DNA from: an uncultured bacterium
GTDB taxonomy: Bacteria > Planctomycetota > SZUA-567 > JAKLDR01
NCBI GenBank assembly: GCA_965370045.1
Contig: CBDUSI010000003.1
Coordinates: forward strand, 11,256 to 75,255
DNA: 64,000 bases
Reading direction: 5' to 3'
Every line of letters starts with the position of its first letter. Position 1 is the first letter of the stretch. This document shows positions 48,683 through 64,000 of the stretch, piece after piece. The notes beneath the pieces were generated by a model. That model was not told where the DNA came from, did not search any database, and saw only the letters and a program-made list of their open reading frames with translations. Position numbers and translations under genes: made by a program.

Positions 48683-51760
<3,078 letters not shown>

Positions 51761-51821
51761 GTTGCGGCAGGCCTAAACACCTGGCGCGCAGGCACGTGGA
51801 GTCGAGCGCCCGGGAATAACA

Positions 51822-51851
51822 TTGACCGGCCCCGGCTTGTAAGTGTATAAT
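51822..51851 (+). promoter_or_regulatory. near-consensus sigma70-type promoter at the head of the 51.9-63.2 kb cluster
   Basis: TTGACC-18 nt-TATAAT (TG immediately upstream), then AGGAG 8 nt before ATG 51893. Confidence 0.6.
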
Positions 51852-51892
51852 GAATGTGCTTGAGTTCATCGAGTCATTTAGGAGAAAGCTTC

Positions 51893-52867
51893 ATGTGGCG
51901 CAAGCTCGTTCTGGTAGTGGTTTGCCTGTCCTTCCCGGCCGCGGCCCTGGCCCATCTGTGCAACGACGTCTTCGTGCAGGCCAAGGATAACCTGGCCGTG
52001 AAGGTCGACGTGCGCGACGGGCAGCTGCGCATCGGCAAGAAGGCCTCTTTCCGGGTGTACCTGCTCAACACCATGGACCGGGGCATAGTCAACATCAAGC
52101 TGGAGGTGCGCACTTCCGGGAAGTTCCGGGCCGCGGTCAAGCCCGGGCCGGGCTGGAAGCGCGCCCCCTACCTGCAGTGCGTCCGCAAGGGAGGGAAGAA
52201 GCAGTACTATGAGGTGACCCTCACGCGCAATCCGGGGGTGCCTGACGGCCGCTACAAGATCGACCTGCACCTCTTCAACGGCAAGCGCAAGTCCATGGTC
52301 TTCAAGACCGTGGACCTGGGCAAGGCCGCCAGCATCTGCGACGTGCCCAAGGCCGCCAAGGTCGCGGTCGACGGCAACGCCAGCTCCACCGAGTGGGGCA
52401 AGAGCTTCCTGGCCACCGGCTTCTACTCCTACGTCAAGAAGGGGCGGTTCTTCGTAAACGTCCCCGCCGCGGACCAGAGCCTCTTCCGGGTCACCGCCGA
52501 CAAGGACAACCTCTACCTCTACCTGGGCTTCCAGGGGGGCGCCGGCGCCACCAGCGACGTGGCCAGCTTCTACCTGGCCCCGACCGTCGACGCGACGCCC
52601 GTCAAGTTCAGCGTTGACCGCCTGACCGGCAAGGTGGCCTGCTCCAAGGGCACCGCCGGCGTGGAGTGCAAGGTGGGCGCGGGCAAGACCGCCGTCGAAC
52701 TCAAGATTCCGCGCAAGCTGGCCGGCGTGGCCGGGTCCAAGGGCTTCTACGCCAACTTCACCCGCACGCTGACCAAGGCGGACAAGAAGCTGGTCACCTA
52801 CTGGCGCGGCAACAAGCACTCGGCGGACAAGCCGGTGGAGTTCGCCCACTTCAAGGTCGCCGAATAG
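51893..52867 (+). CDS. exported Lys-rich protein: Ig-like domain + CBM9/DOMON-like domain
   Basis: Signal MWRKLVLVVVCLSFPAAALA. The second half (AVDGNASSTEWGKSFLATGFYS...FRVTADKDNLYLYLGF...) resembles the carbohydrate-binding family 9 / DOMON superfamily pattern. Confidence 0.6.
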   Translation: MWRKLVLVVVCLSFPAAALAHLCNDVFVQAKDNLAVKVDVRDGQLRIGKKASFRVYLLNTMDRGIVNIKLEVRTSGKFRAAVKPGPGWKRAPYLQCVRKGGKKQYYEVTLTRNPGVPDGRYKIDLHLFNGKRKSMVFKTVDLGKAASICDVPKAAKVAVDGNASSTEWGKSFLATGFYSYVKKGRFFVNVPAADQSLFRVTADKDNLYLYLGFQGGAGATSDVASFYLAPTVDATPVKFSVDRLTGKVACSKGTAGVECKVGAGKTAVELKIPRKLAGVAGSKGFYANFTRTLTKADKKLVTYWRGNKHSADKPVEFAHFKVAE

Positions 52868-52967
52868 GCAACGGGGCGGCTGCTCCACCCGAGTCGGGAC
52901 TCAAGCGCGGAGGTGACAATGAGCACAGGGGCCGCGGCCGGCAACTCCTACTCCTTGCGAAGGCCCG

Positions 52968-53687
52968 TTGTTTACGGACGGTTCACCGTCTCCGACTGAG
53001 AGCTTGACCCGCCGCGCGCGGATCGCTCTCTTTCTGGCGCTGCTCGGCGTCATCGCGGCCGCGCCGGCGCTCGCCGTCGAATCCGCCAAGCTCGAGCTCT
53101 TCTCCGCAGGCGACCACCTGTTCGAAAGCGGAGAGAAGCCCACCGCGGTGCCCGGCGACCCCGGCCGCGTGCTGGTGGTCGGCCGCTGCGAGGGCCCGGA
53201 CTTCGCCATCGACGACATCAGCCAGGTGGAACTGCTCTCGCCCGGCGGCCGGCGGGTACCGCTCCACGTGGAGGAGGCCAGGATATACCGGGACCCCGTC
53301 GCCGACAACAAGATCGTTTCCCTGCGCGTCTACTTCCTGGCCGCGAAGTCGGACCTCACACCCGCCGCGGGGAGCTTCGAGCTGCGCTGGGGAGCGGGGG
53401 TCAAGGCCGCCAACAAGAAGGTCGCCGCGATAGTCCTCGACCCCGGCCGCCGGGCCGGCTACCGCGAGTTCCGCCGCCGCAAGCCCCCGCCCGCAGCCGG
53501 CGGCGACGGCCAGAGCTCCGCCCTCTGGGTCATCGCCGACAGCAAGGCCGACTACTACTTCCTGTGGTACCTGGTGCCCATGGCGCTGATCTTCGTGCTG
53601 CTGACCGTGAGGAAGATCCGCGGCAGCAGCAGCCCATCTGACGACGGGAAACCAAGCGGTGGTCCAACTCCTCGATCCCCTCGTTAA
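52968..53687 (+). CDS. exported protein with C-terminal membrane anchor, unknown function
   Basis: TTG 52968. An alternative TTG at 53004 gives the classical signal (M)TRRARIALFLALLGVIAAAPALA. C-terminal TM YYFLWYLVPMALIFVLLTV. Overlaps the next gene by 29 nt. Confidence 0.55.
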   Translation: MFTDGSPSPTESLTRRARIALFLALLGVIAAAPALAVESAKLELFSAGDHLFESGEKPTAVPGDPGRVLVVGRCEGPDFAIDDISQVELLSPGGRRVPLHVEEARIYRDPVADNKIVSLRVYFLAAKSDLTPAAGSFELRWGAGVKAANKKVAAIVLDPGRRAGYREFRRRKPPPAAGGDGQSSALWVIADSKADYYFLWYLVPMALIFVLLTVRKIRGSSSPSDDGKPSGGPTPRSPR

Positions 53688-55179
53688 CCTGGCCCGCCCG
53701 CTGACCAGTCCCTTCCTGGCGCTGCTGGTGGTGGGGCTGATTCCCTGGCTGGCCGGGAGTCGCCGAAGCGCCGCCTTCAAGGCCGCGTTCCTGGCCGGCG
53801 TCCTGCTGGTCTTCTCGACGGCATATCATCTGCTGTGCCGCAGCCGGGGCTTCGCCGACTGGCTGACCGGGACCACCAGCCCGCTGATCGCCGTCCTCCT
53901 GGTGATCGTTCTGCCGGCCATGTACCTGCCCCGCAACCGGTGGTACAAGCTCTTCCTGCTGGTGCCCGCCGCGGTGCTGGGGCTCGGCGCTCTCTCGGTG
54001 ATTGAGAACTACCGCGCGGTGCCGGCCGGGAAGGACGGCTGGTACTGGCTGCTGATTCGTCCGGCGTGGCTGATGGGCGGGGTCGCCTCGCTGCTGGTGC
54101 TGGTCCAGCCCCTGCTGCGCCTGGCCGACCTCCGCAGGCTGGTCCGCTTCGCCTGCTTCCTGGTGCTGGTCTACGGGGGCATGGCCCTGCGCGCCAGCTA
54201 CACCGACTACCGCGCGACGGTCGAGCGACGGCCCCAGGTCGAGCAGGACGTGATGAAGCTCTCCGAGACCATCCCGGTGCTCCAGAACGACCAGCGCATG
54301 ACCCACCTGCCCGCGGCGCCCTGTCGCTTCACCTCCGACGGCGGCTACGTGCAGGGCTGCAACATGGAGCTCTTCCAGCGCGTCCTCCAGGTGAACTGGG
54401 CCAGGCTGTGGCGCGGCGAGGGCTCGGCCGACGACCGGGGCGCCATGCGCCTGGCGCTGGGGGCGCTGCTCTTCTTCCTGATCGTCAGCTTCCTGCTGGC
54501 CCGCTGGTTCTGCGGCTGGCTCTGCCCGCTCTCCTCGATCGGGGACGTGCTCGACTGGATCCGCCGCAAGCTGCGCCTGCCGCACCTCAAGCCGGTCCGG
54601 CCGGTGAAGCTGGCCTATTTCTTCTCCGGCGCGGGGCTGGCGACCCTCACCCTGGCCATGTCCAAGGCCTATCCGCACATCGACGAGAAGACCGGAAGTT
54701 TCGCCGGCTGCAAGATTCCCATCTATCCATTCTGCAAGATGTGCCCCAGCCAGCAGGTCTGCCCGGTGGTCGCCGGCGGGCCGGACAACTATCCCGGCTT
54801 GCCCTCCTGGGAGGATTGGGCTTTCTTCCGGACCATGGTGTTGATCCTGCTGGTGGTCTTCGGTATCAGCTTCATGATCGGCCGGCGGCTGTGGTGCCGG
54901 CTGTGTCCCATGGGCATCATTTCGGGAATATTCAACCGCGGGGGGATGATTACGCTGCGCAAGGAGCCCGGCAAGTGCAACCGCTGCGGGGTCTGCGCGG
55001 AGGTCTGCCCCATGGACATCGACCTGGTCCGCGCGGAGATGACCGACACCGACGTTACCAGCTACGACTGCGTGCTCTGCCTCAAGTGCGTCGAGAAATG
55101 CCCGCGCGACGGTTGCCTGGCCCTGGAGCACGCCGGGGTCCGGGTCACCGAGTCGCGCTTTGACGGGAAGAACCGATGA
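53659..55179 (+). CDS. polytopic NapH/NosR-type membrane polyferredoxin (copy 1) with ~250-aa N-terminal membrane extension
   Basis: CGWLCP and CRLCP membrane Cys motifs. Two ferredoxin motifs, CNRCGVCAEVCP and CVLCLKCVEKCP. Confidence 0.75.
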   Translation: MVQLLDPLVNLARPLTSPFLALLVVGLIPWLAGSRRSAAFKAAFLAGVLLVFSTAYHLLCRSRGFADWLTGTTSPLIAVLLVIVLPAMYLPRNRWYKLFLLVPAAVLGLGALSVIENYRAVPAGKDGWYWLLIRPAWLMGGVASLLVLVQPLLRLADLRRLVRFACFLVLVYGGMALRASYTDYRATVERRPQVEQDVMKLSETIPVLQNDQRMTHLPAAPCRFTSDGGYVQGCNMELFQRVLQVNWARLWRGEGSADDRGAMRLALGALLFFLIVSFLLARWFCGWLCPLSSIGDVLDWIRRKLRLPHLKPVRPVKLAYFFSGAGLATLTLAMSKAYPHIDEKTGSFAGCKIPIYPFCKMCPSQQVCPVVAGGPDNYPGLPSWEDWAFFRTMVLILLVVFGISFMIGRRLWCRLCPMGIISGIFNRGGMITLRKEPGKCNRCGVCAEVCPMDIDLVRAEMTDTDVTSYDCVLCLKCVEKCPRDGCLALEHAGVRVTESRFDGKNR

Positions 55180-56429
55180 ACCCCCAGCAGTTCGACGAGA
55201 GATACCGCCTGGAGCCCCTGCGGGGCGAGGACCCCGGGGTCGCCAAGCGCGCGCGCTTCGTGGAGAGCGAGCAGCGCCGCGTGCAGGCCGAGATCAGGAA
55301 CCGCCCGGAGAACATCTCCTGGTTCGAGGACCGCCTGGCCGCTCCGGCCGGGTCCGGCGGCGGCAAGCTGGTCGGCTACTTCTGCAACATGATTCCCCCG
55401 GAGATGATTCGCGCGCTGGGCGCGCTGCCGGTTCGACTGGGCTGCGGCAACCCCGCGCTGGTCCAGCCCGGCGAGGAGGTCTTCTCCGGGGAGATCTGCC
55501 CGCTGGCCAAGGCCTCCTTCGCGGCCTTCATGGACGAGAAGAGCGCGGCCAACAAGTGCGACGCCCTGCTGGTGCCCACCAGCTGCGACGCCAAGCGCAA
55601 GCTCGGCGAGGTGCTGGCCGATTTCAAGCCGACCTTCATGCTCAACCTGCCGCCGGAGCAGGACGCCGCCCGCTACGGCAAGAGCGCCGCCGAGGAGTTC
55701 GGGCGGATGGCCGACTTCCTCTCGGGGGTGCTCGGCGAAAAGCTCTCCAGGGGTCGGCTGCTCCGCGAGATCGAGCTGGGCAACGACCGCGCCCTGCTGG
55801 TCCGCGAGCTGCAGGCCGCCCGCGCCGCGAGGCCCGCCGCGCTCTCGATCCGCGACATGTTCGTGGTGCTCCAGAGCTCCTTCGCGGCGGTGGACCTCGG
55901 CGAGTGGCTGCGCCAGGCCGAGAAGGTGCTGGCCGGCGTGCGGAGTTTCGAGGCCTCGCGCCGCCGGCTCCGGCCGCGGCTGGTCCTGACCGGCGCGCCG
56001 ATCATCTGGCCGAACTTCAAGGCGCTTAACCTCATTGAGGAGTCCGGTGCCGACGTGGTCGCCGACACCCTGTGCAGCGGGGCGCAGAGCGTTTTCGATC
56101 CGGTGCTCTTCGACGAGAAGAGCCGCGGGGCGCTGCTCCGCGCGCTGGCCCAGCGCTACGTCTTCGCCTCGCCCTGCCCCTGCTTCATCTCCCAGGGCAC
56201 GCGCCTCAGTCGGGTGCTGGATCTCGTCGATGAACTCGACGCCGACGGCGTGGTCAACTACAGCCTGCGCCTCTGCCAGCTCTTTGACATGGAAGCCTAC
56301 CGCCTCTCGCGTATCATGAGGGAGCGCAAGGTGCCGTTCATGATCATGCGCACCGACTACAGCCTGGAGGACACCGAGCAGCTCCGCGTGCGCCTGGAGG
56401 CGTTCCTGGAAACGCTGGGGGAGGACTGA
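55176..56429 (+). CDS. HGD-D family Fe-S protein (2-hydroxyacyl-CoA dehydratase/BcrC-like; single-subunit, double-cubane-cluster-protein type)
   Basis: ATG overlaps the upstream stop (ATGA). KLVGYFCNMIPPEMIRALGALP, LVPTSCDAKRK, GAPIIWPNFK, ASPCPCF, VVNYSLRLCQLFDME. Nine Cys. No second dehydratase subunit is nearby. Confidence 0.75.
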   Translation: MNPQQFDERYRLEPLRGEDPGVAKRARFVESEQRRVQAEIRNRPENISWFEDRLAAPAGSGGGKLVGYFCNMIPPEMIRALGALPVRLGCGNPALVQPGEEVFSGEICPLAKASFAAFMDEKSAANKCDALLVPTSCDAKRKLGEVLADFKPTFMLNLPPEQDAARYGKSAAEEFGRMADFLSGVLGEKLSRGRLLREIELGNDRALLVRELQAARAARPAALSIRDMFVVLQSSFAAVDLGEWLRQAEKVLAGVRSFEASRRRLRPRLVLTGAPIIWPNFKALNLIEESGADVVADTLCSGAQSVFDPVLFDEKSRGALLRALAQRYVFASPCPCFISQGTRLSRVLDLVDELDADGVVNYSLRLCQLFDMEAYRLSRIMRERKVPFMIMRTDYSLEDTEQLRVRLEAFLETLGED

Positions 56430-56433
56430 CGAC

Positions 56434-57249
56434 GTGATTTCCGTCGGCGTGGACATCGGCTCGACCACCACCAAGGGCGTGGTCCTGGACGGCGAGGAAG
56501 TCCGCGCCTCGCTGGTGGTGCCCAGCGGCAACCTCCCGGGTGAGACCGCCAGGGAGGTCCTGGCGCGGGTCATGCGCGAGGCTGGCGTCGCCGAGAAGGA
56601 CGTGGAGGTCATCGCCACCACCGGCTACGGGCGCCGCATGGTGGACCTCGGCGACATCGTCATGACCGAGATCAAGGCCTGCGCGCTGGGCGCGCTCTTC
56701 CGCGACCCGGGCGGCGCCGGGAAGCTGCACACCGTCATCGACGTCGGCGGGCAGGACACCAAGGTGGTCGCCCTGGCCGACGGCGGGGACATCGAAGACT
56801 TCAGCATGAACGACAAGTGCGCCGCGGGCACCGGGCGCTTTCTGGAGATGCTGGCCGACAAGCTGGAGATGACCTACGAGGGCTTCGTCGCCGAGGCCCT
56901 GAAGAGCGAGACCATGATCCAGATGAGCGCCACCTGCGCGGTCTTCGCCGAGAGCGAAGTAGTCGGCCTGCTGGCCCGCAGCGTCTCCAAGGCGGACATC
57001 GCCGCCGCGGCGCACAACGCCATCGCCACGCGGGTGGCCTCCATGATCCGCCGGGTGGGCCAGCGCGGCACGTACTCGTTCGTCGGCGGGGGCGCGCGCA
57101 ACGCCGCCCTGGTCAGGGCGGTGGAGGAAACCCTCAACAAGCCGGTGTACGTGCCCGCCGACGCCCAGATTATCGTCGCCCTGGGCGCGGCCATCGGCGC
57201 CCAGCGCAAGGTCCGCAAGATGCGCGGGAAGGAGCAGGCCGCCGAATGA
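56434..57249 (+). CDS. HgdC/BcrAD_BadFG-type ATPase (dehydratase/reductase activase)
   Basis: GTG start. GVDIGSTTTKGVVL, DKCAAGTGRFLE, TCAVFAESEVV (the bridging [4Fe-4S] Cys positions of activases). Confidence 0.88.
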   Translation: MISVGVDIGSTTTKGVVLDGEEVRASLVVPSGNLPGETAREVLARVMREAGVAEKDVEVIATTGYGRRMVDLGDIVMTEIKACALGALFRDPGGAGKLHTVIDVGGQDTKVVALADGGDIEDFSMNDKCAAGTGRFLEMLADKLEMTYEGFVAEALKSETMIQMSATCAVFAESEVVGLLARSVSKADIAAAAHNAIATRVASMIRRVGQRGTYSFVGGGARNAALVRAVEETLNKPVYVPADAQIIVALGAAIGAQRKVRKMRGKEQAAE

Positions 57250-58193
57250 GGTTCGGGCTGCTCCTTCCGGCCGCGCTGCTCGTCGCGGGCCTCGCCGCCG
57301 GTTGCGGGGACGGCGACGCTCCCGAGAAGAAACTCAAGAACCTGACGGTGTTCCACGCCGGGGGGCTCACCCCGGTCCTGGAGGCGGTCCGCAAGCCCTG
57401 CGAGAAGGAGCTGGGCATCAAGCTGCGCACCGAGGCCTCCGGCAGCCAGGTGGCCTGCCGCAAGATCGCCGAGCTGGGCCGGAAGTGCGACCTGGTCATG
57501 CTCGCCGACGCGGGCCTGGTCGCGAGTCTGCTCAAAGGCAACTGTTCCTGGCGACTGGACTTCGCCAGCGACGAGGTGGTGCTGGCCGTGGGCCAGCGCG
57601 CGCCGCGCGTCGCCGAGGCCGAGAAGGACTGGACGAAAGTGCTGACCGCCGGAAAGGTCAAGCTCGGGCGCGTGGACGAGAACCAGGGGCCCATCGGCTA
57701 CCGGACCCTGATGGTCTGGAAGCTTCAGGAAAAGCTGGGCGCGAAGAACCTGCATGATCGCCTTAGGGCCAAGGGCGGCAAGGTGGTTGATCATGTAGCC
57801 CGGCTTACTCCCTTGCTCAAGTCCGCCGAGATCGACTACGCCTTCGTCTACCGCTCGATCTGCATCGCCCATGACGTCCGCTACATCCGCCTGGAGAAGC
57901 GCGTGAACCTGGGCTCGGCGGACCACGACTACTCCGCGGCAAAAGTAACCTACGGGAAGGCCAGGAAGAAGATAACCGTCAAGGGCGCGCCGATCATCTG
58001 GACCCTGAGCATCCCCGACCGCAGCGCGGACGAGGAGTCCGCGCGGCGCTTCGTGCGCTGGCTGCTGTCCGACAAGAAAAAGCTCCTCGAGAAGCACGGT
58101 TTCCGGCCGCTGGCCCGTCCCCGGTTCCACGGACCGAAGAAGGCCTTCGGCGCCCTCAAGGACTTCGCCGGGAACTCCGGGAAGCTGAAGTGA
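57246..58193 (+). CDS. lipoprotein substrate-binding protein, WtpA/ModA-like (tungstate/molybdate-type oxyanion binding family)
   Basis: ATG overlaps the upstream stop (ATGA). Lipobox GLAAGC. LTVFHAGGLT, EASGS....RKIAELGRKCD, GPIGYRTLM and EIDYAFVYRSI resemble my recollection of archaeal WtpA landmarks. Confidence 0.7.
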   Translation: MRFGLLLPAALLVAGLAAGCGDGDAPEKKLKNLTVFHAGGLTPVLEAVRKPCEKELGIKLRTEASGSQVACRKIAELGRKCDLVMLADAGLVASLLKGNCSWRLDFASDEVVLAVGQRAPRVAEAEKDWTKVLTAGKVKLGRVDENQGPIGYRTLMVWKLQEKLGAKNLHDRLRAKGGKVVDHVARLTPLLKSAEIDYAFVYRSICIAHDVRYIRLEKRVNLGSADHDYSAAKVTYGKARKKITVKGAPIIWTLSIPDRSADEESARRFVRWLLSDKKKLLEKHGFRPLARPRFHGPKKAFGALKDFAGNSGKLK

Positions 58194-59629
58194 AGGAGTA
58201 CTACTCCTCCCGCGCGCGGCTGGCGGTGGTGGCCGGGCTGCTCGGCGCGCACTCGATCGCCTACATCGCCTGCGGGCTTACCGGTTACATAGACCCATTC
58301 GAGTTCTTCAACGTGCTGCTGCTGGCTGGCAACTTCCTCATCGGGGCGGTCCTCTTGCGCGGGGAGCATGACCTGCTCCTCGGCGGGGGGACCATGCTCC
58401 TGGTGGCCGCGCACGGCTTCGTCGGGCACCGCCTGGCGCCCCAGGCGCTGGACAGCGGCGCGCTGCTGATGGTCAGCATCATGGTGCTCTACGTGGGGGT
58501 CAAGGTCAACACCCTGCTCCCCGCCAGATACTGGTACGCGCTGGTGATCAGCTACCTGCTGCTCTTCTTCATTTTCGTGGAAATCAACTGGGCGACGCTC
58601 TTCCCGAAGCTGGGAGAGATGGGCATCACCAGGACCGGCATCGCCAACGCCGTGCCCCTGCTCCTGCTCTTCCTGCTGGGCCTGGCGGCCTGCGCGCGCT
58701 CCTTCCGGCTGCTGGCCTACTTCTGGGCCATCGTCATCAGCTTCACCTTCTGCCAGCCCTACGCCTGGGAGGCGGTGCTCATCGCCTTCTTCTCGCTCAC
58801 CGCGGTCTTCAGCGCGCGGGGCCGGGCGCCATCTCGCACGGCGATCGTCTTCCTGTCCTGCGGGCTGGCCCTGACCTTCCTGGTGCTCTTCCCGGTGGTG
58901 GCCATCGTGCGCAGTGAGAGCCTGCACAGCATGAAGTTGGTCGTCGAGGACCCCGGATTCCGAAAGGCGGTGTGGACCACCCTGAAGACCGCCACCTTCT
59001 CGACGCTCTTCCTGGTGGTCTTCACCGTCCCGCTGGCCTACGCGGTGAGCCGGCTGCGCTTCCGGGGCCGGACGCTGCTGCTCTCGCTGATAGACATCCC
59101 TATCGTGATACCCCAGTCGGTGGCGGCGGTGGCGCTCCTGAGAGTTTTCGGCGAGGAGCAGTTCCTGGGCGAGCTGTTCTCCCGCTACTTCGGGATCAAG
59201 TTCAGCGGCGCGCTGGCGGGCATCTGCCTGGCGCAGGTCTTCGTGGCCATGCCCTTCATCACCCGCAGCGCGGTGGCCGCCTTCGACGCGGTGCCCGAGC
59301 GCCTGGAGCTGGCCGCGCGGACTCTGGGCACCAGCTCCTGGGGCGCCTTCTGGCGAGTCGCCCTGCCGCTGGCCTCGCGCGGGGTGTTCCTCGGCGCGGT
59401 GCTGGCCTGGGCCCGGGCCGCCGGGGAGTTCGGCGCGCTGTGGCTCATCGCCGCGACCCCTCGGACCGCCCCCATGGAGGTCTACTACAAGTTCCATAGC
59501 GACGGCGTGGTCCAGGCCGCCCCCATGGGCGCGGCGCTGCTGCTGTTCAGCCTGGCCATGTTCTTCCTGCTGCAGTTCGTCTCGCGCACGCTGCCCTCGG
59601 TGCACGGCACGCGGGAGCGACTGCTGTGA
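58190..59629 (+). CDS. ABC permease (ModB/WtpB-like) fused to an extra ~210-aa polytopic N-terminal domain
   Basis: GTG overlaps the upstream stop (GTGA). The C-terminal half is a canonical type-I permease with EAA loop ELAARTLGTSSWGAFWRVALP. The N-terminal half has about 6 additional hydrophobic helices. Confidence 0.8.
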   Translation: MKEYYSSRARLAVVAGLLGAHSIAYIACGLTGYIDPFEFFNVLLLAGNFLIGAVLLRGEHDLLLGGGTMLLVAAHGFVGHRLAPQALDSGALLMVSIMVLYVGVKVNTLLPARYWYALVISYLLLFFIFVEINWATLFPKLGEMGITRTGIANAVPLLLLFLLGLAACARSFRLLAYFWAIVISFTFCQPYAWEAVLIAFFSLTAVFSARGRAPSRTAIVFLSCGLALTFLVLFPVVAIVRSESLHSMKLVVEDPGFRKAVWTTLKTATFSTLFLVVFTVPLAYAVSRLRFRGRTLLLSLIDIPIVIPQSVAAVALLRVFGEEQFLGELFSRYFGIKFSGALAGICLAQVFVAMPFITRSAVAAFDAVPERLELAARTLGTSSWGAFWRVALPLASRGVFLGAVLAWARAAGEFGALWLIAATPRTAPMEVYYKFHSDGVVQAAPMGAALLLFSLAMFFLLQFVSRTLPSVHGTRERLL

Positions 59630-60684
59630 GCGCGCTGCTGGAGCTTCGCGGCCTGCGTCTCGCGCTGGGCGAGTTCCGGCTGGGGCCGCTCTCGCTGGAG
59701 CTGGCCGCCGGGGACTACCTGGTGCTCCTGGGGCCCTCGGGCTGCGGCAAGACCTCCCTGCTCCGCGCGGTGGCCGGCATTTACCCCAACCAGCCGGGGC
59801 AGCTCTTTCTTGAGGGGCAGGACGTCGGCCGGCTGGCGCCGCACATGCGCCGGGTGGGCTACGTCTCGCAGACCGCCGACCTCTTCCCGCACAGGAGCGT
59901 GGCCGCTAATATCGCCTTCGGGCTGAGCTACCTGCCGCTTTCCCGCCCGGAGCGCCGCGAGCGCGCCCGGGACATGGCCGCGGTGCTGGGCGTCGAGGGC
60001 CTGCTGGGGCGCAACCCGGCGACGCTCTCGGGCGGAGAGGCCAAGCGCGTGGCCCTGGCCCGGAGCCTGGTGGTCGACCCCCGGGTGCTGCTGCTGGACG
60101 AGCCGCTCTCCATGCTGGACCACAACGCGCGCCGGCGGATGCTGGACCTCCTGCGAATCGTCCACGACCGGCTGGGCACCGCCACCATCCACGTCACCCA
60201 CGACCGCGAGGAGGCCTGGGCCATGGGCGGCGGCTGCGCGGTGATGGACGCCGGGCGCATCGAGGGCAGCGGGGGCGTCGAGGAGCTCTTCCGCCGGCCG
60301 GCGCGGCGCTTCGTGGCCGAGTTCCTGGGGGGCGAGAACCTGTTCTCCGCGCGCTTCGAGCGCCGCGGCGAGAAGTGCTTCGCGGTCCTGGACTGGGCCG
60401 AGCTCCCACTGGCCGGGACGGTCGACTTCGCGGACGGCTGGGTGCAGATCCGCCCGGAGAGCCTGCTGGTCGCCGGGCCGGAGTGCCCCGAGGCCTTCGG
60501 GGTCACGGTACTCTCGGTCACCGACCGGGGCATCTACCGCGAGATTCGCGCCTCGACCCGCAGCGGGAAGGTCCTGGTCTGTCACGCGGTCATGACCGGT
60601 GAGCGGGTGCCGGCGCCCGGAGAAATGCTGATGATGCGCCTGGCGGACCCGCCCCATGCCATCGAAGGTGAAGGCCATGCCTGA
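59626..60684 (+). CDS. ABC transporter ATP-binding protein with C-terminal TOBE-like domain
   Basis: GTG overlaps the upstream stop (GTGA). GPSGCGKTS, LSGGEAKRVALARSL, LLLDEPLSMLD, and a ~110-aa beta-rich tail. Confidence 0.9.
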   Translation: MSALLELRGLRLALGEFRLGPLSLELAAGDYLVLLGPSGCGKTSLLRAVAGIYPNQPGQLFLEGQDVGRLAPHMRRVGYVSQTADLFPHRSVAANIAFGLSYLPLSRPERRERARDMAAVLGVEGLLGRNPATLSGGEAKRVALARSLVVDPRVLLLDEPLSMLDHNARRRMLDLLRIVHDRLGTATIHVTHDREEAWAMGGGCAVMDAGRIEGSGGVEELFRRPARRFVAEFLGGENLFSARFERRGEKCFAVLDWAELPLAGTVDFADGWVQIRPESLLVAGPECPEAFGVTVLSVTDRGIYREIRASTRSGKVLVCHAVMTGERVPAPGEMLMMRLADPPHAIEGEGHA

Positions 60685-61762
60685 GTGGCTGCGCCGGGTC
60701 GAGGAGTGGATCGAGAGCGCCTCGGCCAACATCAAGTTCGTGGACCAGGCGCTCACCGGCCTGGAGGGCAGCTACGTCGAGCTGCTCACTATTCTGTCGC
60801 TGGGTCTGCTGGCGGTGATTCCCGCGGTGGTCCCCGCCAAGCGCCGGCAGTTCTACCGGCATCTCAACCAGATATTCGGGATCGCCGTCTTCGTATTCGT
60901 GGTCTTCACCTGCCTGGGCGTCTTCGGGATGATCCGCAACTTCCACCGGGGTCTCAGCGAGATCGGCCGCGAGAACATCATCGCGCTGTACTACTGCTCG
61001 GTGCCGGTCACCATACTGACCACCTCCATGCTCTTCGGGCCGACCTTCTGCGGCTGGATATGCCCCACCGGCGCGCTGCAGGAGTTCGTGGGCATGATCA
61101 CCGGCCGGTGGCACCGCGCGCGGCGCAGGGCCGGCTATCCCTTCTCCCGGGGATCGTTGACCATGGCCCTGGGCGTCGCCGGGGTATTCCTGCTGTGGAT
61201 GGCCTACCTCTCGGCCACCCGCATCTTCTTCGTGGAGGACGCCAGCATCTACTGGTCGGAGGTGCTGATCCTCCTGCTCCTGGTGCTGGTCTGGAAGATG
61301 CGCGACTGGGACAAGCGTCTGCGCAGGCTCAGGGTGCTCTCCTTCTGGATCATCGTGGCCGCGGCGGTGGCCAGCATGAGGATCACCTCGCCGGTGCACT
61401 TCGGCTTCAGCAAGGTCTACGACCCGGCCTCGGTGCTGTCCACGGTGATGGTCGCGCTGGCCGCGCTGACCGTGCCCCACGTCTGGTGCCGGTACCTGTG
61501 CCCCTGGCGCGAGGCCATCGCCTGGGCCGGCAAGCACAGCGTGCGCCGCCTGGAGACCGATCATGAGAAGTGCATCCACTGCGGGAAGTGCACCGAGGTT
61601 TGTGGCGTGGAGGCGGTCCTCGACGGGAAGATCGACCCCCACGAGTGCCACATGTGCATGAAGTGCGTGGACATCTGCCCCACCGGGGCCATAAGCGTGG
61701 TGGACAAATGGAGACCTGAGACTTGCGAGTCCGACTGCGAGTCCTGCTCGCCCTCGCGCTGA
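60677..61762 (+). CDS. NapH-type membrane polyferredoxin (copy 2)
   Basis: ATG 60677 (MPEWLRR; track start 60656 is also possible). CGWICP, CRYLCP, CIHCGKCTEVC, CHMCMKCVDICP. Cys-rich tail CESDCESCS. Confidence 0.75.
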   Translation: MPEWLRRVEEWIESASANIKFVDQALTGLEGSYVELLTILSLGLLAVIPAVVPAKRRQFYRHLNQIFGIAVFVFVVFTCLGVFGMIRNFHRGLSEIGRENIIALYYCSVPVTILTTSMLFGPTFCGWICPTGALQEFVGMITGRWHRARRRAGYPFSRGSLTMALGVAGVFLLWMAYLSATRIFFVEDASIYWSEVLILLLLVLVWKMRDWDKRLRRLRVLSFWIIVAAAVASMRITSPVHFGFSKVYDPASVLSTVMVALAALTVPHVWCRYLCPWREAIAWAGKHSVRRLETDHEKCIHCGKCTEVCGVEAVLDGKIDPHECHMCMKCVDICPTGAISVVDKWRPETCESDCESCSPSR

Positions 61763-63213
61763 TCTCCGCTTCGGCGCGGGCGGCCGACACCCTGTGGAGA
61801 TCGCCGCGGGGAGACCCCGCCGGGCGGGCGGTCTGCCGCTGGCCCGCCGACCGGCCCCCACCGGTAGTCAAGGAATGGCACTTCCAGTCCAAACGGGGCC
61901 GCCGCTACAAGATGGGGCTGGCGGTGTGGGCCTCGCCGGCGGTGGCGATAGTCGACGGCCGGCCGGTGGTATTCATCGGCGGCTACGACCAGACCATGCA
62001 CGCGCTGGACCTGACCAGCAAAGAGCGCCTGTGGCGCATCATCACCAACGGCGAGATCGCCGGCCCCCCGGCCGTCGGGCTGGTGGACGGCGAGCAGGTG
62101 GTCTTCTGGGGCTCGGCGGACCGCTTCGTGTACGCCTACTACGCCGACAGCCGCGGGGAGGTCGAGGGCCGCAAGTTCTGGAGGGGAATGCGCGAACTGG
62201 TGAAGTCCACCAGCACCCAGGGCGACGTCAGCCTCTCGGCCCCGCTGCTCCACGACGGGAAGCTGTACATCACCTGCTTCGTCTTCGACCGGGCCATGGC
62301 CCGCAGCCAGCAGAAGGGCTGGCTTTTCTGCCTCGAGATGAAGACCGGCGAGGTGCTCTGGCAGCAGGAGGTCAGCCAGGGGCCGGTGGGGCATCCCGTC
62401 GGGCGGGTCATCGACGGGCGCTTCACGGTGTTCGTGTGCGCGCGCAAGGGACGGCTCCAGGCCTACGACGTTTCGGGGGTCAGGCCCGCGCTCCTCTGGG
62501 ACCACCAGATGCCCCACGAGGTGATGGGCTCGCCGGTCCTCAACCAGAGCGCCGGGAACCCGCTGCTGTTCCTGGGCTCCAAGTTCGGCTACCTTCACGC
62601 CATCGACGCGCGCACCGGGAAGGGCGTCTGGAAGCGCATGTCCGGCAACTGGATCGACAACAGCGCCTGCGTGGGCACGCTCGACGGCGAGGAGCACGTC
62701 TTCGTGGGCTCGCACGACTATAACGTTTACGCCTACCGGGCCGCGGACGGCGAGCTCCGCTGGAAGCGCCACCTGGGCGGGGAGGTCTACACCGCGCCGA
62801 GCTTCTTTCACATGGAAGGCCGGGCGATGGTGACGGTCGCGGCGCTGGACAACCACCTCTACGTGCTGTACGCCGACACCGGCAACGTGGCCACCTCCTA
62901 CTACACGGGCACGCCCATCTGGGACAAGGTCGCCAAGGGCGAGACCCTGTGGGGCTCCTCGGCGGTCTTCGAGGCCGGTGAAGAGACCGCCATCGTGCAC
63001 GGGTCCTTCAACGACTTCGTCTACGTCTACCCGGTGAGCGCCACGAAATACTGCGGGCTGCGCAGCAAGGTCCAGAGCCCCAAGCGGCTGTGGTGGGGGC
63101 TGCTGGTGACCCTGGTGGTCTTCGGCGGGGTGGTGCTGCCCATCGTGCTCAAGCTGCCGGCGCGCGACGGCGGGCGCCGGCCGGGAAAGAAACAGGACGG
63201 CGCAACAGCTTAG
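61723..63213 (+). CDS. exported PQQ-like (BamB-type) beta-propeller repeat protein with C-terminal TM anchor
   Basis: TTG 61723 gives the signal (M)RVRLRVLLALALISASARAA. Repeated blades read ...MHALDLTSKERLW, LFCLEMKTGEVLW, LHAIDARTGKGVW, VYAYRAADGELRW. C-terminal LWWGLLVTLVVFGGVVLPIVL. 40-nt overlap with the upstream gene. Confidence 0.8.
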   Translation: MRVRLRVLLALALISASARAADTLWRSPRGDPAGRAVCRWPADRPPPVVKEWHFQSKRGRRYKMGLAVWASPAVAIVDGRPVVFIGGYDQTMHALDLTSKERLWRIITNGEIAGPPAVGLVDGEQVVFWGSADRFVYAYYADSRGEVEGRKFWRGMRELVKSTSTQGDVSLSAPLLHDGKLYITCFVFDRAMARSQQKGWLFCLEMKTGEVLWQQEVSQGPVGHPVGRVIDGRFTVFVCARKGRLQAYDVSGVRPALLWDHQMPHEVMGSPVLNQSAGNPLLFLGSKFGYLHAIDARTGKGVWKRMSGNWIDNSACVGTLDGEEHVFVGSHDYNVYAYRAADGELRWKRHLGGEVYTAPSFFHMEGRAMVTVAALDNHLYVLYADTGNVATSYYTGTPIWDKVAKGETLWGSSAVFEAGEETAIVHGSFNDFVYVYPVSATKYCGLRSKVQSPKRLWWGLLVTLVVFGGVVLPIVLKLPARDGGRRPGKKQDGATA

Positions 63214-63300
63214 ACCCTTGCGTTCCGGCGGTGTATAGAGATATATACCGGGAGACGCCGCGGACCGGGGAGGGGGGGCGCAGAGCGCCGGGAGGCATCC

Positions 63301-64000
63301 ATGAAGGTTCTCAACTGGGGGGTTCTGGGCACCGGAATGATCGCCGACCGCTTCTCGCGGGGCCTGGCCTCGACGGACCAGGCGGCGCGCTACGCGGTGG
63401 GCTCGCGCGAGAAGGAGCGTGCCCAGGACTTCGCCATGAAGTTCGGCTTCGCCCGGGCCTACGGGAGTTACGAGCAGGTGCTGCGCGACGAGAGCACCGA
63501 CGCGGTCTACATCGCGCTGCCCAACAGCCTGCACGCCGAGTGGGCAACCAAGGCCGCCGAGGCCGGCAAGCACATCCTTCTTGAAAAACCCGCGACGGTC
63601 AACACCGCCGAGCTGGAAGCGGTGCTGGCCACCGCGAAGAAGAACGGGGTCTTCTTCATGGAGGCCCTCATGTACCGCTGCCACCCGCGGATAGCGCGCC
63701 TCAAGGAGATACTCTCCGACGGGCGGATCGGCGAGGTGCGGGTTATTGAGACCAGCTTCGAGATCGACATGGGCTTGAAGCTCGCCAACTACCGCATGAA
63801 GAACGCCATGGGCGGCGGGGCGCTGATGGACCTGGGCTGCTACTGCGTCTCCTTCTGCCGCATGGCCGCCGGCGCCGAGCCGACCGCCGCCCGGGGCGTC
63901 GCCTGCATCGACCCGGCCACCCGCGTCGACTGGCAGTCGGCGGGGCTCATGAAGTTCCCGAGCGGAGCGGTGGCCTCCTTTACATGTGGCAACCAGTGCG
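63301..64000 (+). CDS. Gfo/Idh/MocA family NAD(P)-dependent oxidoreductase (partial, runs off window end)
   Basis: Not in the ORF track because it is open-ended. ATG 63301 gives MKVLNWGVLGTGMIADRF (Rossmann), HILLEKP (EKP motif). I read 233 codons with no stop. Confidence 0.85.
   Translation, partial: MKVLNWGVLGTGMIADRFSRGLASTDQAARYAVGSREKERAQDFAMKFGFARAYGSYEQVLRDESTDAVYIALPNSLHAEWATKAAEAGKHILLEKPATVNTAELEAVLATAKKNGVFFMEALMYRCHPRIARLKEILSDGRIGEVRVIETSFEIDMGLKLANYRMKNAMGGGALMDLGCYCVSFCRMAAGAEPTAARGVACIDPATRVDWQSAGLMKFPSGAVASFTCGNQC

Follow-up and report, generated by a model that had tools for sequence, protein, structure and literature searches.

An operon of ten genes, conserved among anaerobic PVC bacteria, couples a double-cubane-type reductase with membrane polyferredoxins, exported proteins, and an importer

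Ten genes (g1-g10) in the 64-kb stretch of DNA analysed here (the window) form, judging by their gene order in related genomes, a real operon that is widely conserved in anaerobic PVC bacteria. It couples an ATP-driven, very-low-potential iron-sulfur reductase with electron conduits in the membrane, with exported proteins, and with an importer, and it provides the first conserved gene neighbourhood in which the role played by an enzyme of the double-cubane-cluster protein (DCCP) type could be tested. The best reading, which we put forward tentatively, is that ATP-energised electrons exit the DCCP via the polyferredoxin g3 to a periplasmic thiol/metal site; if so, the locus would encode one envelope-spanning iron-sulfur redox machine. 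A literature search found no published description of the ten-gene system, in agreement with an earlier sequence-only reading of this DNA that had called it previously undescribed.

Layout and distribution of the operon

According to the ORF list of the window, the ten genes run in the same direction over 51893-63213 (+) and mostly overlap. The junctions from g1 to g10 are +100, -29, -4, +4, -4, -4, -4, -29, and -40 nt. The lengths given earlier stood except at g8/g9, where the called start gives -29 nt and a later g9 start gives -8 nt. When 51000-64000 was scanned, TTGACC-18-TATAAT was the sole promoter-like match (11/12 positions), and the ORFs lay where the sequence-only reading had placed them. 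Coupled junctions and a single promoter indicate that the ten genes are one expression unit. An alternative g1 start, the ATG at 51854, was rejected: the -10 box ends only 2 nt upstream, so the start must be the ATG at 51893, which the gene callers also picked. GC3 was 0.87-0.96 for nine cluster genes, g6 being left out because it is nested in a longer ORF. Pfam and NCBIfam searches confirmed the assigned HGD-D, BcrAD_BadFG, two Fer4_5/NapH-like, WtpABC-like importer, and PQQ_2 propeller proteins. The reported absence of CoA-ester, Mo/W-enzyme, and cytochrome genes held for the cluster and for the 20 other window ORFs scanned.

Table 1. Positions of the promoter and genes in the window, with the main supporting match.
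Feature	Position	Strand	Evidence
sigma-70-like promoter TTGACC-18-TATAAT	51822..51851	+	11/12 matches to sigma-70-like consensus
g1, exported two-domain beta-sandwich, 324 aa	51893..52867	+	signal peptide; no Pfam family
g2, bitopic protein, no known family	52968..53687	+	N-terminal signal/anchor, periplasmic domain, C-terminal TM 196-214
g3, NapH-type membrane polyferredoxin, 506 aa	53659..55179	+	Fer4_5 5.6e-15
g4, double-cubane-cluster-type HGD-D protein, 417 aa	55176..56429	+	HGD-D 264.9 bits, 1.9e-78
g5, archerase-type ATP-dependent electron-transfer activase, 271 aa	56434..57249	+	TIGR00241 231 bits, cut-off 125
g6, lipoprotein solute-binding protein (SBP), WtpA-like scaffold	57246..58193	+	SBP_bac_11 3.6e-26; lipobox LAAG/C20
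g7, WtpB/ModB/CysT-type ABC permease, 479 aa	58190..59629	+	BPD_transp_1 at 282-466
g8, ABC importer ATPase, WtpC/CysA/PotA-like	59626..60684	+	ABC_tran 4.6e-30
g9, second NapH-type polyferredoxin, 368 aa, ~7 TM	60656..61762	+	Fer4_5 5.2e-12
g10, exported eight-bladed PQQ_2/BamB-like beta-propeller	61723..63213	+	PQQ_2 8e-27; C-terminal TM anchor 453-477

All ten genes were collinear in 16 of the 37 species-level loci, and contig ends truncated others. This order is shared by Planctomycetota, Lentisphaerota, Verrucomicrobiota, Kiritimatiellia, Auribacterota, and Brocadiia (16 species-level genomes), and g4 identity over six PVC lineages was 49-69%. In Victivallales the cluster occurs in two parts, g1-g4 and g5-g10, which lie 5.4 Mb apart and are both retained. 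The gene association that the sequence-only reading wanted tested therefore holds in at least six lineages of PVC bacteria, even where the genome carries it in two parts. Four divergent minimal loci (L047, L050, L051, and L052), which break at the same point as the Victivallales split, contain g1-like, g2-like, NapH-like, and DCCP genes, with the activase adjoining this group in three of the four. No importer, g9, or propeller gene was found in their DNA, which covered ±10 kb for L047 only; L050, L051, and L052 are on short contigs, and importer genes could sit nearby or elsewhere in the genome. In a further locus, L041, the SBP is missing. Wherever genes had been called, g3 and g4 were direct neighbours that either overlapped or were separated by 1-16 nt, and g5 was encoded away from g4 in some loci. 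Because the minimal loci keep only g1-g4 and usually g5, the importer, second polyferredoxin, and propeller appear accessory, and the invariant core, as defined by this comparison of loci, is g1-g2-g3-g4 plus the activase g5.

The double-cubane protein, its activase, and the polyferredoxins

The best NCBIfam match of g4 was NF040772 (double_cubane) at 265 bits, under the 350 cut-off. The single HGD-D domain and nine cysteines noted earlier were confirmed; the predicted ligand set is C70, C90, C108, C137, C300, C334, and C367, all invariant in 20 homologues. In Carboxydothermus hydrogenoformans, DCCP/DCCP-R (CHY_0487/0488; PDB 6ENO, 7YYL) has the same lone HGD-D fold of about 420 aa and shares with g4/g5 the N-terminal extension, which is class I-like in g4, the seven motif cysteines, and an adjacent archerase-type ATPase with two cluster-bridging Cys. 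The cysteines of g4 aligned with those of 6ENO/7YYL, although the E-value (about 1e-43) and the sub-cut-off family score mark a distant relation, Cys spacings are 1-4 residues off, and an extra invariant C128 has no 6ENO counterpart. No second HGD-D gene was found in the window or within ±10 kb of any fetched locus. Together with the presence of all seven DCCP cysteines, this supports the proposal, already made in the sequence-only reading, that g4 is a DCCP-type protein with a lone subunit, as opposed to an ordinary dehydratase. In all cases the g4 gene shares its operon with genes for a NapH-type membrane protein and for exported proteins, an association on which the DCCP papers examined are silent. 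Public annotation names these proteins 2-hydroxyacyl-CoA dehydratase or BcrC/BadD/HgdB. The activase g5 matched BcrAD_BadFG (6.9e-52), 4EHT (2.5e-51), and DCCP-R (7YYL_E, 4.2e-33) and is nearer HadI/MbdQ than DCCP-R; its cluster-bridging Cys129 and Cys168 were assigned by homology.

The g3 stop overlaps the g4 start (ATGA). The g3 protein combines two CX2-3CP motifs and a 2x[4Fe-4S] domain with six additional TM helices at its N-terminus, and it scored 89.6 bits with the napH_ model (cut-off 213). By NapH topology, which reportedly goes back to Brondijk et al. 2004, the 2x[4Fe-4S] domain would be cytoplasmic. In g3, 21 Cys are conserved at 90% or more, and six invariant cysteines, C222/C234 and C351-X7-C359-X2-C362-X5-C368-P, map to predicted periplasmic loops on the basis of conservation, hydropathy, and NapH topology. 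Each of the five locus types that contain g1, the minimal loci included, encodes a NapH-like protein with these Cys loops, and neither g1-less locus has the complete 4-Cys loop, a correlation of 5 vs 2 locus types only. In L052, the NapH-like protein beside the DCCP lacks the loops, whereas a second NapH-like copy has them. The second polyferredoxin, g9, has no periplasmic Cys loops and is the most conserved cluster protein (65-76% identity across phyla).

In modules of the NapH/NosR/PceC type (PF12801), too, a protein with several TM helices bears two CX3CP motifs and, at the C-terminus, a 2x[4Fe-4S] domain, and is encoded beside periplasmic partners (Meheust et al. 2021, PMC8238504); in some of the described clusters, a NapH-like protein is found together with a propeller oxidase of the PQQ type (PMC8238504). 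In contrast, the present cluster contains no FMN-binding domain, ApbE, NapG, or known terminal oxidoreductase; g3 adds the periplasmic Cys loops and six TM helices and scores below the NapH and NosR cut-offs; and the cytoplasmic partner is an ATP-driven DCCP, not quinol or ferredoxin. The analogy once drawn with the nos cluster holds at the level of a NapH/NosR-type conduit with periplasmic partners and fails beyond it.

The exported proteins and the importer

The signal-peptidase site of g1 (A-L-A/H) gives the predicted mature N-terminus H21-L-C23-N-D25. Residues H21, L22, C23, N24, D25, M61, D62, and R63 were invariant in 51 sequences, and distant paralogues keep or lose the H-x-C and M-D-R motifs jointly. 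H21-L-C23-N-D25 and N59-T-M61-D62-R63 are a candidate metal/thiol site. An AF2 model of g1 (pLDDT 91.5) matched only generic Ig-like structures in the PDB. Of the former label 'CBM9/DOMON-like', the CBM9 half was retained through a remote CBM9_1 profile link of the C-terminal domain, and the DOMON half was dropped for want of profile support. The g2 protein is poorly conserved, with a start placed at 53004 by gene callers, and its orthologue was recognisable in the minimal locus L050 (E 2e-6). For g10 (AF2 pLDDT 92.9), Foldseek returned BamB, tetrathionate hydrolase, and PQQ-ADH at TM 0.5-0.6; no evidence of PQQ in g10 was found, the PQQ-dehydrogenase models being far below cut-off.

WtpABC gave the best family matches for g6-g8, with the shared motifs E-x-SGS, GYR, and Y-K/R-S and a lipoprotein SBP, but all three proteins were under the family cut-offs (WtpA models for g6; WtpB, 189.6 bits vs 340, for g7; WtpC, 246.6 bits vs 440, for g8). 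The g6 protein aligned with 3CG1/2ONK (E 2e-34). However, the Asp of the octahedral W/Mo Asp/Glu pair, at the WtpA 'D-P-C-G-Y-R' position, is G/A/S in 27/27 g6 orthologues, the FHAGS Ser is lost, and g6 has a conserved Cys81/Cys206 pair. By this alignment the ligand site is remodelled relative to WtpA; the WtpA-like scaffold claimed for the binding protein stands, without the tungstate-binding Asp ligand. Relative to WtpB, g7 carries an N-terminal membrane extension of roughly 220 aa with 6-7 TM, a conserved H75, and no Pfam match. The TOBE domain expected of g8 was not detected in the window's own protein and was weakly detected in orthologues.

Direction of electron flow and competing explanations

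In the outward-flow reading, ATP hydrolysis by g5 would push an electron onto the [8Fe-9S]-type double cubane of a homodimeric g4, by homology. As gene coupling and the literature suggest, g4 would dock on the cytoplasmic domain of g3 and pass on energised electrons, which g3 would move across the membrane to its periplasmic Cys loops. They may then reach exported g1, whose N-terminal His-x-Cys and Met-Asp loop would be a metal/thiol acceptor or catalytic site, with g2 as the presumed membrane tether. The ten-gene PVC version would add an accessory module (SBP g6, permease g7, ATPase g8, conduit g9, propeller g10) that most likely captures and imports an anionic product or substrate, that is, reductive mobilisation then uptake. 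Neither dithionite nor Ti(III) citrate reduces the DC cluster in the characterised DCCP; only its ATPase does (PMC9351452). For an Fe-S partner coupled tightly to it, the role of acceptor is therefore a simpler assumption than that of donor. There is precedent in BzdN, whose [8Fe-9S] cluster relays and stores electrons (PMC11971306), and in NapH-like proteins, which serve as modular conduits for electrons across the membrane (PMC8238504). In class I benzoyl-CoA reductase (BzdNOPQ/MbdNOPQ), an archerase-driven electron enters [8Fe-9S] and is relayed to another Fe-S centre, and the proposed step from g4 to g3 would share this logic. That reductase is, however, a soluble heterotetramer acting on a CoA ester, whereas here a single HGD-D protein occurs without a BzdO-like catalytic subunit or CoA genes, and a membrane polyferredoxin would take up the electrons. 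The g3 loop cysteines and jointly kept g1 motifs count for a periplasmic end point. What goes beyond gene content, including cofactors, complex, topology, and electron direction, we infer. Handing electrons from below about -600 mV to ferredoxin-type clusters of the ordinary kind would be wasteful unless a potential that low is required by the final acceptor, and no periplasmic acceptor of that kind was found. Nor can g1 and g10, being Sec-exported, bring along Fe-S or Moco cofactors that were assembled beforehand.

In C. hydrogenoformans, small molecules are reduced by the DCCP directly at the cluster. The class I N-terminal extension, which g4 retains, goes together with narrow channels for small molecules, so that a substrate in the cytoplasm would be equally natural. 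In the import-and-reduction reading, g6-g8 might bring in a small solute, a tetrahedral oxyanion or something related, for ATP-dependent cytoplasmic reduction by g4/g5 at the double cubane; g3/g9 would either supply electrons, drawn from quinol or from a periplasmic donor that g1/g10 handle, or merely hold the reductase at the membrane beside the transporter. A binding-protein-dependent importer does lie inside the operon in PVC lineages, and in its SBP the scaffold motifs for oxyanion binding persist, as does a single acidic position, D182. At the SAO locus, a DCCP and its activase are likewise in genomic association with an ABC importer, and a chemistry of import followed by reduction has been proposed; DCCP was noted there to associate with ABC transporters and selenium in other bacteria (Haft and Gwadz 2022 preprint). 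That locus differs, however, in proteins (MerB-like SaoL, selenoprotein transporter subunits, an efflux pump) and taxa (spirochetes, deltaproteobacteria, Gram-positive spore-formers); its DCCPs score >400 bits to NF040772 vs 265 for g4, and the preprint mentions neither NapH nor polyferredoxin. We rate import and reduction below outward flow, as a standing rival. The importer is absent from the available DNA of the minimal loci and the SBP from L041; the loss of the WtpA Asp means that the ligand class is not established; and the invariant linkage of g4 to exported g1 and the g3 Cys loops is left unexplained. Moreover, g3 could not reduce g4 directly if the DC cluster takes electrons only from its ATPase, and the g3 gene is tied to g4, not to the sometimes distant g5. 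As core logic, the oxyanion import and reduction hypothesised in the sequence-only reading was thus not sustained.

Less probable still is metal or cofactor trafficking, in which a metal(loid) is acquired and reduced for cofactor assembly with g1 as periplasmic metallochaperone, g3/g9 as CcoG/NosR-like reductases, and g6-g8 as importer, or a heterometal (Mo/W-type) is supplied to a modified g4 double cubane, as mod accompanies nif genes. The His/Cys and Met/Asp motifs of g1 resemble metal-site chemistry, as in His-brace and NiSOD-type sites; the NapH family includes NosR, to which a weak match was seen, and the cupric reductase CcoG; and SBP, permease, and ATPase match Mo/W transporter families best. 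Yet no metal-dependent client enzyme was found in or near any locus, the sole Moco riboswitch found controls another gene and no regulator points to Mo/W, the WtpA ligand Asp is lost, and known metal reductions need no ATP-driven reductase below -600 mV. An ordinary 2-hydroxyacyl-CoA dehydratase or benzoyl-CoA reductase fragment beside unrelated genes, as the public names and the similarity of g5 to HAD/BCR activators would suggest, is effectively refuted. Each locus has one HGD-D gene in the DNA covered (the 64-kb window, and ±10 kb around every fetched locus) and no conserved CoA-transferase, ligase, or acyl-CoA genes nearby, and g4 carries the full 7-Cys motif, whereas dehydratase subunits bind single clusters. 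The BzdN, HadC, and BcrC models reached 51-80 bits against 265 for double_cubane, and ten-gene synteny across phyla excludes chance adjacency.

Operon structure and conservation

The ORF listing of the window confirmed ten co-directional ORFs on the plus strand, as an earlier sequence-only reading had proposed, and these are numbered here in order (g1 to g10). GC3 was 0.87–0.96 in nine of them, as expected for real genes in a genome of 68% GC; g6 does not appear in this GC3 survey of window ORFs because it is nested within a longer ORF. The junctions from g1 to g10 measured +100, −29, −4, +4, −4, −4, −4, −29, and −40 nt. They agree with those listed in the sequence-only reading except at g8/g9, where the previous value of −8 nt derives from a later ATG. 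The promoter proposed there (TTGACC-18-TATAAT) was also found, matching at 11 of 12 positions; it is the sole promoter-like match in 13 kb, and a scan of the cluster DNA found no convincing internal terminator. Since only 2 nt separate its −10 box from the ATG at 51854, g1 must start at the ATG at 51893, from which the protein begins MWRKLV with a signal peptide; the public gene call agrees.

The window belongs to a 77.7-kb metagenome scaffold. Its remaining genes are housekeeping and exopolysaccharide genes, and the flanks of the cluster carry different genes in each lineage, so the ten genes form a self-contained module. The protein encoded directly upstream (1025 aa) ends 62 nt before the promoter and has a Ser/Thr kinase domain and FGE-sulfatase-type domain(s) in its C-terminal half, according to the Pfam annotation of the public gene call; it is not kept beside the cluster in other genomes. 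A PADLOC scan gave no match, and thus the cluster is not a known defence system. An Rfam scan of the window detected no riboswitch. The related locus L018 contains one of the Moco class (molybdenum/tungsten cofactor; 55.4 bits), and the gene that follows it is DUF1559/N-methyl pilin-like and not a Mo/W transport or cofactor gene. It was ruled out as a regulator of the cluster because it heads that gene and a tmRNA gene intervenes.

Coordinates of features in the window and in related loci
Sequence	Positions	Strand	Feature
Window	48683-51760	+	Gene for 1025-aa kinase/FGE-sulfatase-type protein
Window	51822-51851		Promoter TTGACC-18-TATAAT
Window	51893	+	Start codon (ATG) of g1, exported protein
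Window	57246-58193	+	g6, solute-binding protein
L016	10001-17900	+	g4-g10
L016	17898-20076	-	g1-g3
L018	3275-3388	+	Moco riboswitch
L043	16269-17873	-	ORF with fused SBP_bac_11 and SAM methyltransferase domains
L046	8244-8936	+	230-aa ORF between g8 and g9

Homologues of g4, the HGD-D protein, are abundant in metagenomes at 52–79% identity, and the named ones carry the labels 2-hydroxyacyl-CoA dehydratase or BcrC/BadD/HgdB. A scan with one genome per species yielded 37 loci, all from uncultured Planctomycetota, Lentisphaerota/Victivallales, Verrucomicrobiota, Kiritimatiellia, Auribacterota, Brocadiia, or unclassified bacteria. All ten genes were collinear, with identical order and strand, in 16 of the 37, which answers positively the test of neighbour conservation put forward in the sequence-only reading; most of the others are interrupted by contig ends, and the remainder of each is consistent with the same order. 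Identity across the loci was highest for g9 (65–76%) and lowest for g2 (27–49%). In an 8.6-Mb Victivallales chromosome, g1–g4 lie at 2.90 Mb and g5–g10 at 8.29 Mb. The retention of both halves is stronger evidence of functional linkage than inherited order alone. A Victivallis vadensis MAG (L033) contains g1–g4.

Distant relatives of g1 could be placed on contigs at four loci (L047, L050, L051, L052). All four contain a g1-like gene, a small g2-like anchor, a short NapH-like gene, and a gene encoding a DCCP (double-cubane cluster protein), which is ~40% identical to g4 in the two compared (L047 and L050) and has 7 Cys visible in L047. An activase gene is adjacent in three of the four, and a second NapH-like gene is present in one (L052). 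In L047, the 10 kb to each side encode no ABC importer, g9-type protein, or propeller, and none of these was seen in the shorter contigs of L050, L051, and L052. Thus, g1-g2-g3-g4 with g5 is the invariant core, and g6–g10 is an accessory module of the PVC version; the boundary coincides with the split point in Victivallales.

Variations in arrangement were seen at individual loci. In L016, a Planctomycetota MAG, g1–g3 are inverted and lie downstream of g10, with g4–g10 collinear and all ten genes still together. The Victivallales locus L046 carries between g8 and g9 an additional ORF with no family match, which is missing from the window.

The double-cubane-type protein and the membrane polyferredoxins

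Profile searches against Pfam and NCBIfam bore out the domain calls of the sequence-only reading; g1 and g2 match no family. g4 matched PF06050 (HGD-D) with 264.9 bits over residues 70–414, and its residues 62–413 aligned with the solved DCCP (6ENO, 7YYL; E about 1e-43). Its top NCBIfam match was the double-cubane model NF040772 (265.3 bits, not reaching the curated cut-off of 350), and the BzdN, HadC, and BcrC models scored 80, 53, and 51 bits against cut-offs of 420–700. g4 is therefore outside the curated NF040772 equivalog, though this is by far its best-scoring family. The 7-Cys motif of DCCPs in the literature is CX19CX18-19CX29CX166-170CX32-34CX32C. All seven motif cysteines are present in g4 (C70, C90, C108, C137, C300, C334, C367), with spacings of 19/17/28/162/33/32 that are off the literature motif by 1–4 residues, and they are invariant in 20 homologues. 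In the phmmer alignment, six of the seven were column-matched to 6ENO, and C90 was one column off a 6ENO Cys. The sequence-only reading had noted a lone HGD-D subunit, and indeed no second HGD-D gene turned up, either across the 64-kb window or in the ±10 kb around g4 of each fetched locus; among related loci, only the activase is duplicated, and this at a single Armatimonadota locus. g5, an activase of the acyl-CoA dehydratase type, exceeds its family cut-off and carries both cluster-bridging cysteines, and the activase either adjoins g4 or is encoded elsewhere in the same genome. By its predicted HGD-D fold, 7-Cys motif, and single-subunit type with a cognate archerase ATPase, g4 is read as DCCP-type, a putative homodimer with a putative [8Fe-9S] cluster.

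In profile searches, g3 and g9 are Fer4_5/NapH-like, with a NapH-type TM core, two CX3CP motifs (the second one in g3 is CX2CP), and a C-terminal 2x[4Fe-4S] domain, which in g3 spans about residues 408–506. We rejected their assignment as true NapH, because their scores, 89.6 and 50.8 bits, fall short of the 213 cut-off and NapG, NapA, or a Tat-exported partner was found in none of the loci. A PDB sequence search matched ferredoxin domains only and no solved structure over the g3 or g9 membrane core, so it provided no NapH or NosR core to fix their topology. Brondijk et al. (2004) reportedly assigned E. coli NapH a four-helix topology in which the Fe-S domain and both CX3CP motifs face the cytoplasm, and the topology of g3, in which six extra N-terminal helices precede the NapH-like core, was predicted by mapping onto this arrangement. 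One predicted periplasmic loop of g3 (180–261) contains the invariant C222 and C234 in the motif C-R-F-x3-G-G-x4-C, and another (339–388) contains the invariant C351-X7-C359-X2-C362-X5-C368-P. The periplasmic cysteines are absent from g9. Among the short NapH-like proteins, those of L047, L050, and L051 and the second one of L052 carry the 4-Cys loop, and all of these except L050 carry the 2-Cys motif. The complete 4-Cys loop is absent from L041 and L043, distant loci without g1.

Exported proteins and the importer

The AlphaFold model of g1 consists of two beta-sandwich domains (pLDDT 91.5). The fold was set aside as a functional lead because a PDB fold search gave generic Ig-like sandwiches alone (TM ≤ 0.35). 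The predicted signal-peptidase site (A-x-A↓H, the arrow marking cleavage) makes H21 the mature N-terminus, and H21-L-C23-N-D25 and N59-T-M61-D62-R63 are invariant among 51 homologues. The family is small: among 1.84 billion representative proteins, a profile search found no more than 184 relatives. Distant full-length relatives retain both A-x-[AGS]↓H-[LI]-C-D-[ND]-V and M-D-[RQ], and three relatives without H-x-C have lost M-D-R too. Because the two motifs are kept or lost together, we read them as one joint candidate site, plausibly metal- or thiol-based, which may resemble His-brace or NiSOD-like N-terminal sites. Window g1 has no CBM9_1 (PF06452) match, and two of the 51 family members do (best E 0.001). 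The g1 family profile reaches CBM9_1 proteins: in P0493 and P0494 (E about 3e-6) the matched stretch falls on the CBM9_1 domain, and in P0501 it adjoins that domain. The C-terminal domain of g1 thus appears remotely CBM9-like, and no DOMON family match to g1 was found; the former 'DOMON-like' description finds remote profile support for CBM9 and none for DOMON itself.

Two g1 relatives, P0376 and P0388 (550–569 aa), contain two stretches matching the g1 profile, P0376 without H-x-C. The homologue pairs P0124/P0136 and P0127/P0138 each consist of two different proteins, about 70% and 60% identical to window g1. Within each pair the longest contig has the same size (110,736 bp in the first pair, 3,270 bp in the second), a sign that g1 may be tandemly duplicated in some relatives.

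g2 is bitopic and weakly conserved. g10 was modelled with confidence as an eight-bladed propeller carrying a C-terminal anchor; its nearest structures in the fold search were BamB, tetrathionate hydrolase, and PQQ-ADH (TM 0.5–0.6), and only three His are invariant. A PQQ-dependent dehydrogenase was rejected on profile scores (TIGR03075, 59 bits against a cut-off of 480; PF01011, 28.7 bits with no significant stretch). The likeness to tetrathionate hydrolase was likewise dropped as a sulfur lead, being fold-level similarity to a generic 8-blade propeller.

The importer proteins g6, g7, and g8 had WtpA, WtpB, and WtpC as best matches, every one below cut-off: two WtpA models gave g6 167 bits (cut-off 355) and 151 bits (cut-off 243), WtpB gave g7 190 bits (cut-off 340), and WtpC gave g8 247 bits (cut-off 440). 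g6 has a lipobox and is kin to archaeal WtpA (E 2e-34). In WtpA-type proteins, octahedral W/Mo coordination comes from two acidic residues (Asp and Glu), which we take to be Asp153 and Glu218 in A. fulgidus WtpA, the Asp position in g6 being assigned by motif alignment and this numbering. Every one of the 27 cluster-associated g6 orthologues has Gly, Ala, or Ser in place of the Asp of the WtpA D-P-C-G-Y-R loop, and the FHAGS serine is lost; by gapped alignment and our own residue mapping, one acidic residue, D182, persists close to the Glu position. We rejected g6–g8 as a WtpABC tungstate transporter on the scores and the missing Asp ligand, and with both the Asp and the Ser lost, tungstate is not established as the ligand of g6. 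Two cysteines of g6 (C81 and C206) are conserved at ≥90% among the 27 aligned orthologues and are alanine in aligned archaeal WtpA. g7 carries a 220-aa additional membrane domain with no family found.

Candidate mechanisms and relation to known systems

We conclude that the cluster is an archerase/DCCP system with a new architecture, wired to the membrane and spanning the envelope. Literature searches found no description of the PVC cluster, the g1 family, or the coupling of a DCCP with NapH-like partners. Neither NCBIfam nor Pfam offers a model for g1, for g2, or for the g3 and g7 extensions, and relaxed Pfam scans gave nothing for g2 or the N-terminal extensions of g3 and g7. The closest systems are DCCP/DCCP-R, NapH/NosR/PceC-type conduits, class I benzoyl-CoA reductase (in its relay logic), WtpABC, and Haft's SAO-associated DCCP loci. 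The last differ from the cluster in proteins and named taxa, and Haft's SelD/DCCP co-occurrence statistic covers a >400-bit group, outside which g4 (265.3 bits) falls. The sequence-only reading had seen a likeness to the nos cluster, which extends no further than a NapH/NosR-type conduit with periplasmic partners. That cluster comprises NosZ, the NosD beta-helix, the NosFY exporter, and NosR with its FMN domain, whereas the g1–g10 ABC system is an SBP-dependent importer, the NosR model scored 21–43 bits against a cut-off of 1000, and g10 is a PQQ_2/BamB-like 8-blade propeller with three invariant His.

From gene content, conservation, motifs, and fold predictions we infer all of the electron flow considered here. 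In the characterised DCCP, the DC cluster is reduced by its own ATPase only and not by dithionite or Ti(III) citrate (PMC9351452). g3 and g4 overlap or lie 1–16 nt apart in every locus with called genes, and g5 can sit elsewhere. Class I benzoyl-CoA reductase has turned the [8Fe-9S] cluster type into an electron relay and store (PMC11971306), and NapH-like proteins are viewed as modular conduits through the membrane that serve partners in the periplasm (PMC8238504). Together, these points make g3 as the acceptor of g4 the simplest reading. g3 would take ATP-energised electrons from g4 and carry them to its own periplasmic Cys loops and then on to g1; the PVC-specific importer, second conduit (g9), and propeller (g10) would handle uptake of the resulting solute. 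We favour this outward path tentatively, at somewhat below an even chance. The sequence-only reading had instead proposed import of a small molecule and its ATP-dependent reduction. That is natural for DCCP chemistry, since the known DCCP acts on small molecules directly, and g4 retains the class I N-terminal extension, but it leaves both the importer-less core and the obligate periplasmic partners unexplained, and we regard it as unlikely.

A role in metal or cofactor trafficking is less probable again. For an ordinary 2-hydroxyacyl-CoA dehydratase or class I benzoyl-CoA reductase we see next to no probability: the HadC, BcrC, and BzdN scores are far below cut-off, no CoA-ester metabolism genes are conserved near the cluster in the fetched loci or among the other window ORFs, and the lone HGD-D gene with the full Cys motif excludes both for practical purposes, in line with the sequence-only reading. 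The probability left over belongs to mechanisms outside those listed. Elemental sulfur as a possible electron sink in fermentative PVC anaerobes was considered as a lead and put aside, the Kiritimatiella paper being silent on it.

DCCPs, nitrogenase-like reductases driven by ATP, have been without a known natural substrate or role since 2018. The conserved operon, above all its g1-g2-g3-g4 core, supplies concrete partners that can be tested, namely a polyferredoxin in the membrane, a new family of exported proteins bearing a candidate metal/thiol site, and a dedicated binding protein with a screenable ligand. There is a substantial chance that the cluster represents a new mode of ATP-energised extracytoplasmic reduction. 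If electrons do flow outward, ATP-energised periplasmic reduction would join the known bacterial transmembrane electron routes. It is possible, though doubtful, that this constitutes a new energy-coupled class of transmembrane electron transfer, in which an archerase/double-cubane pair uses ATP to pass extremely low-potential electrons via a NapH-type conduit to a periplasmic His-x-Cys/Met-Asp family. Strict anaerobes would then gain extracytoplasmic reduction beyond the reach of ferredoxin- or quinol-driven systems, for example to mobilise a refractory mineral, chalcogen, or metal(loid) species reductively before its uptake by the ABC system, and DCCPs would have their first physiological role. 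Under the import alternative, the SBP ligand would reveal the first physiological DCCP substrate. Either model corrects the widespread misannotation of these genes in PVC genomes as subunits of 2-hydroxyacyl-CoA dehydratase or benzoyl-CoA reductase, a label that can be mistaken for a sign of aromatic-compound or amino-acid fermentation.

In the Armatimonadota locus L043, an SBP_bac_11 oxyanion-binding domain and a SAM methyltransferase domain are joined in one ORF, which lies a few kb from a set of NapH-like, HGD-D, two activase, and DsbD_2 genes. A methyltransferase that binds anions would be unusual and might hint at metalloid chemistry.
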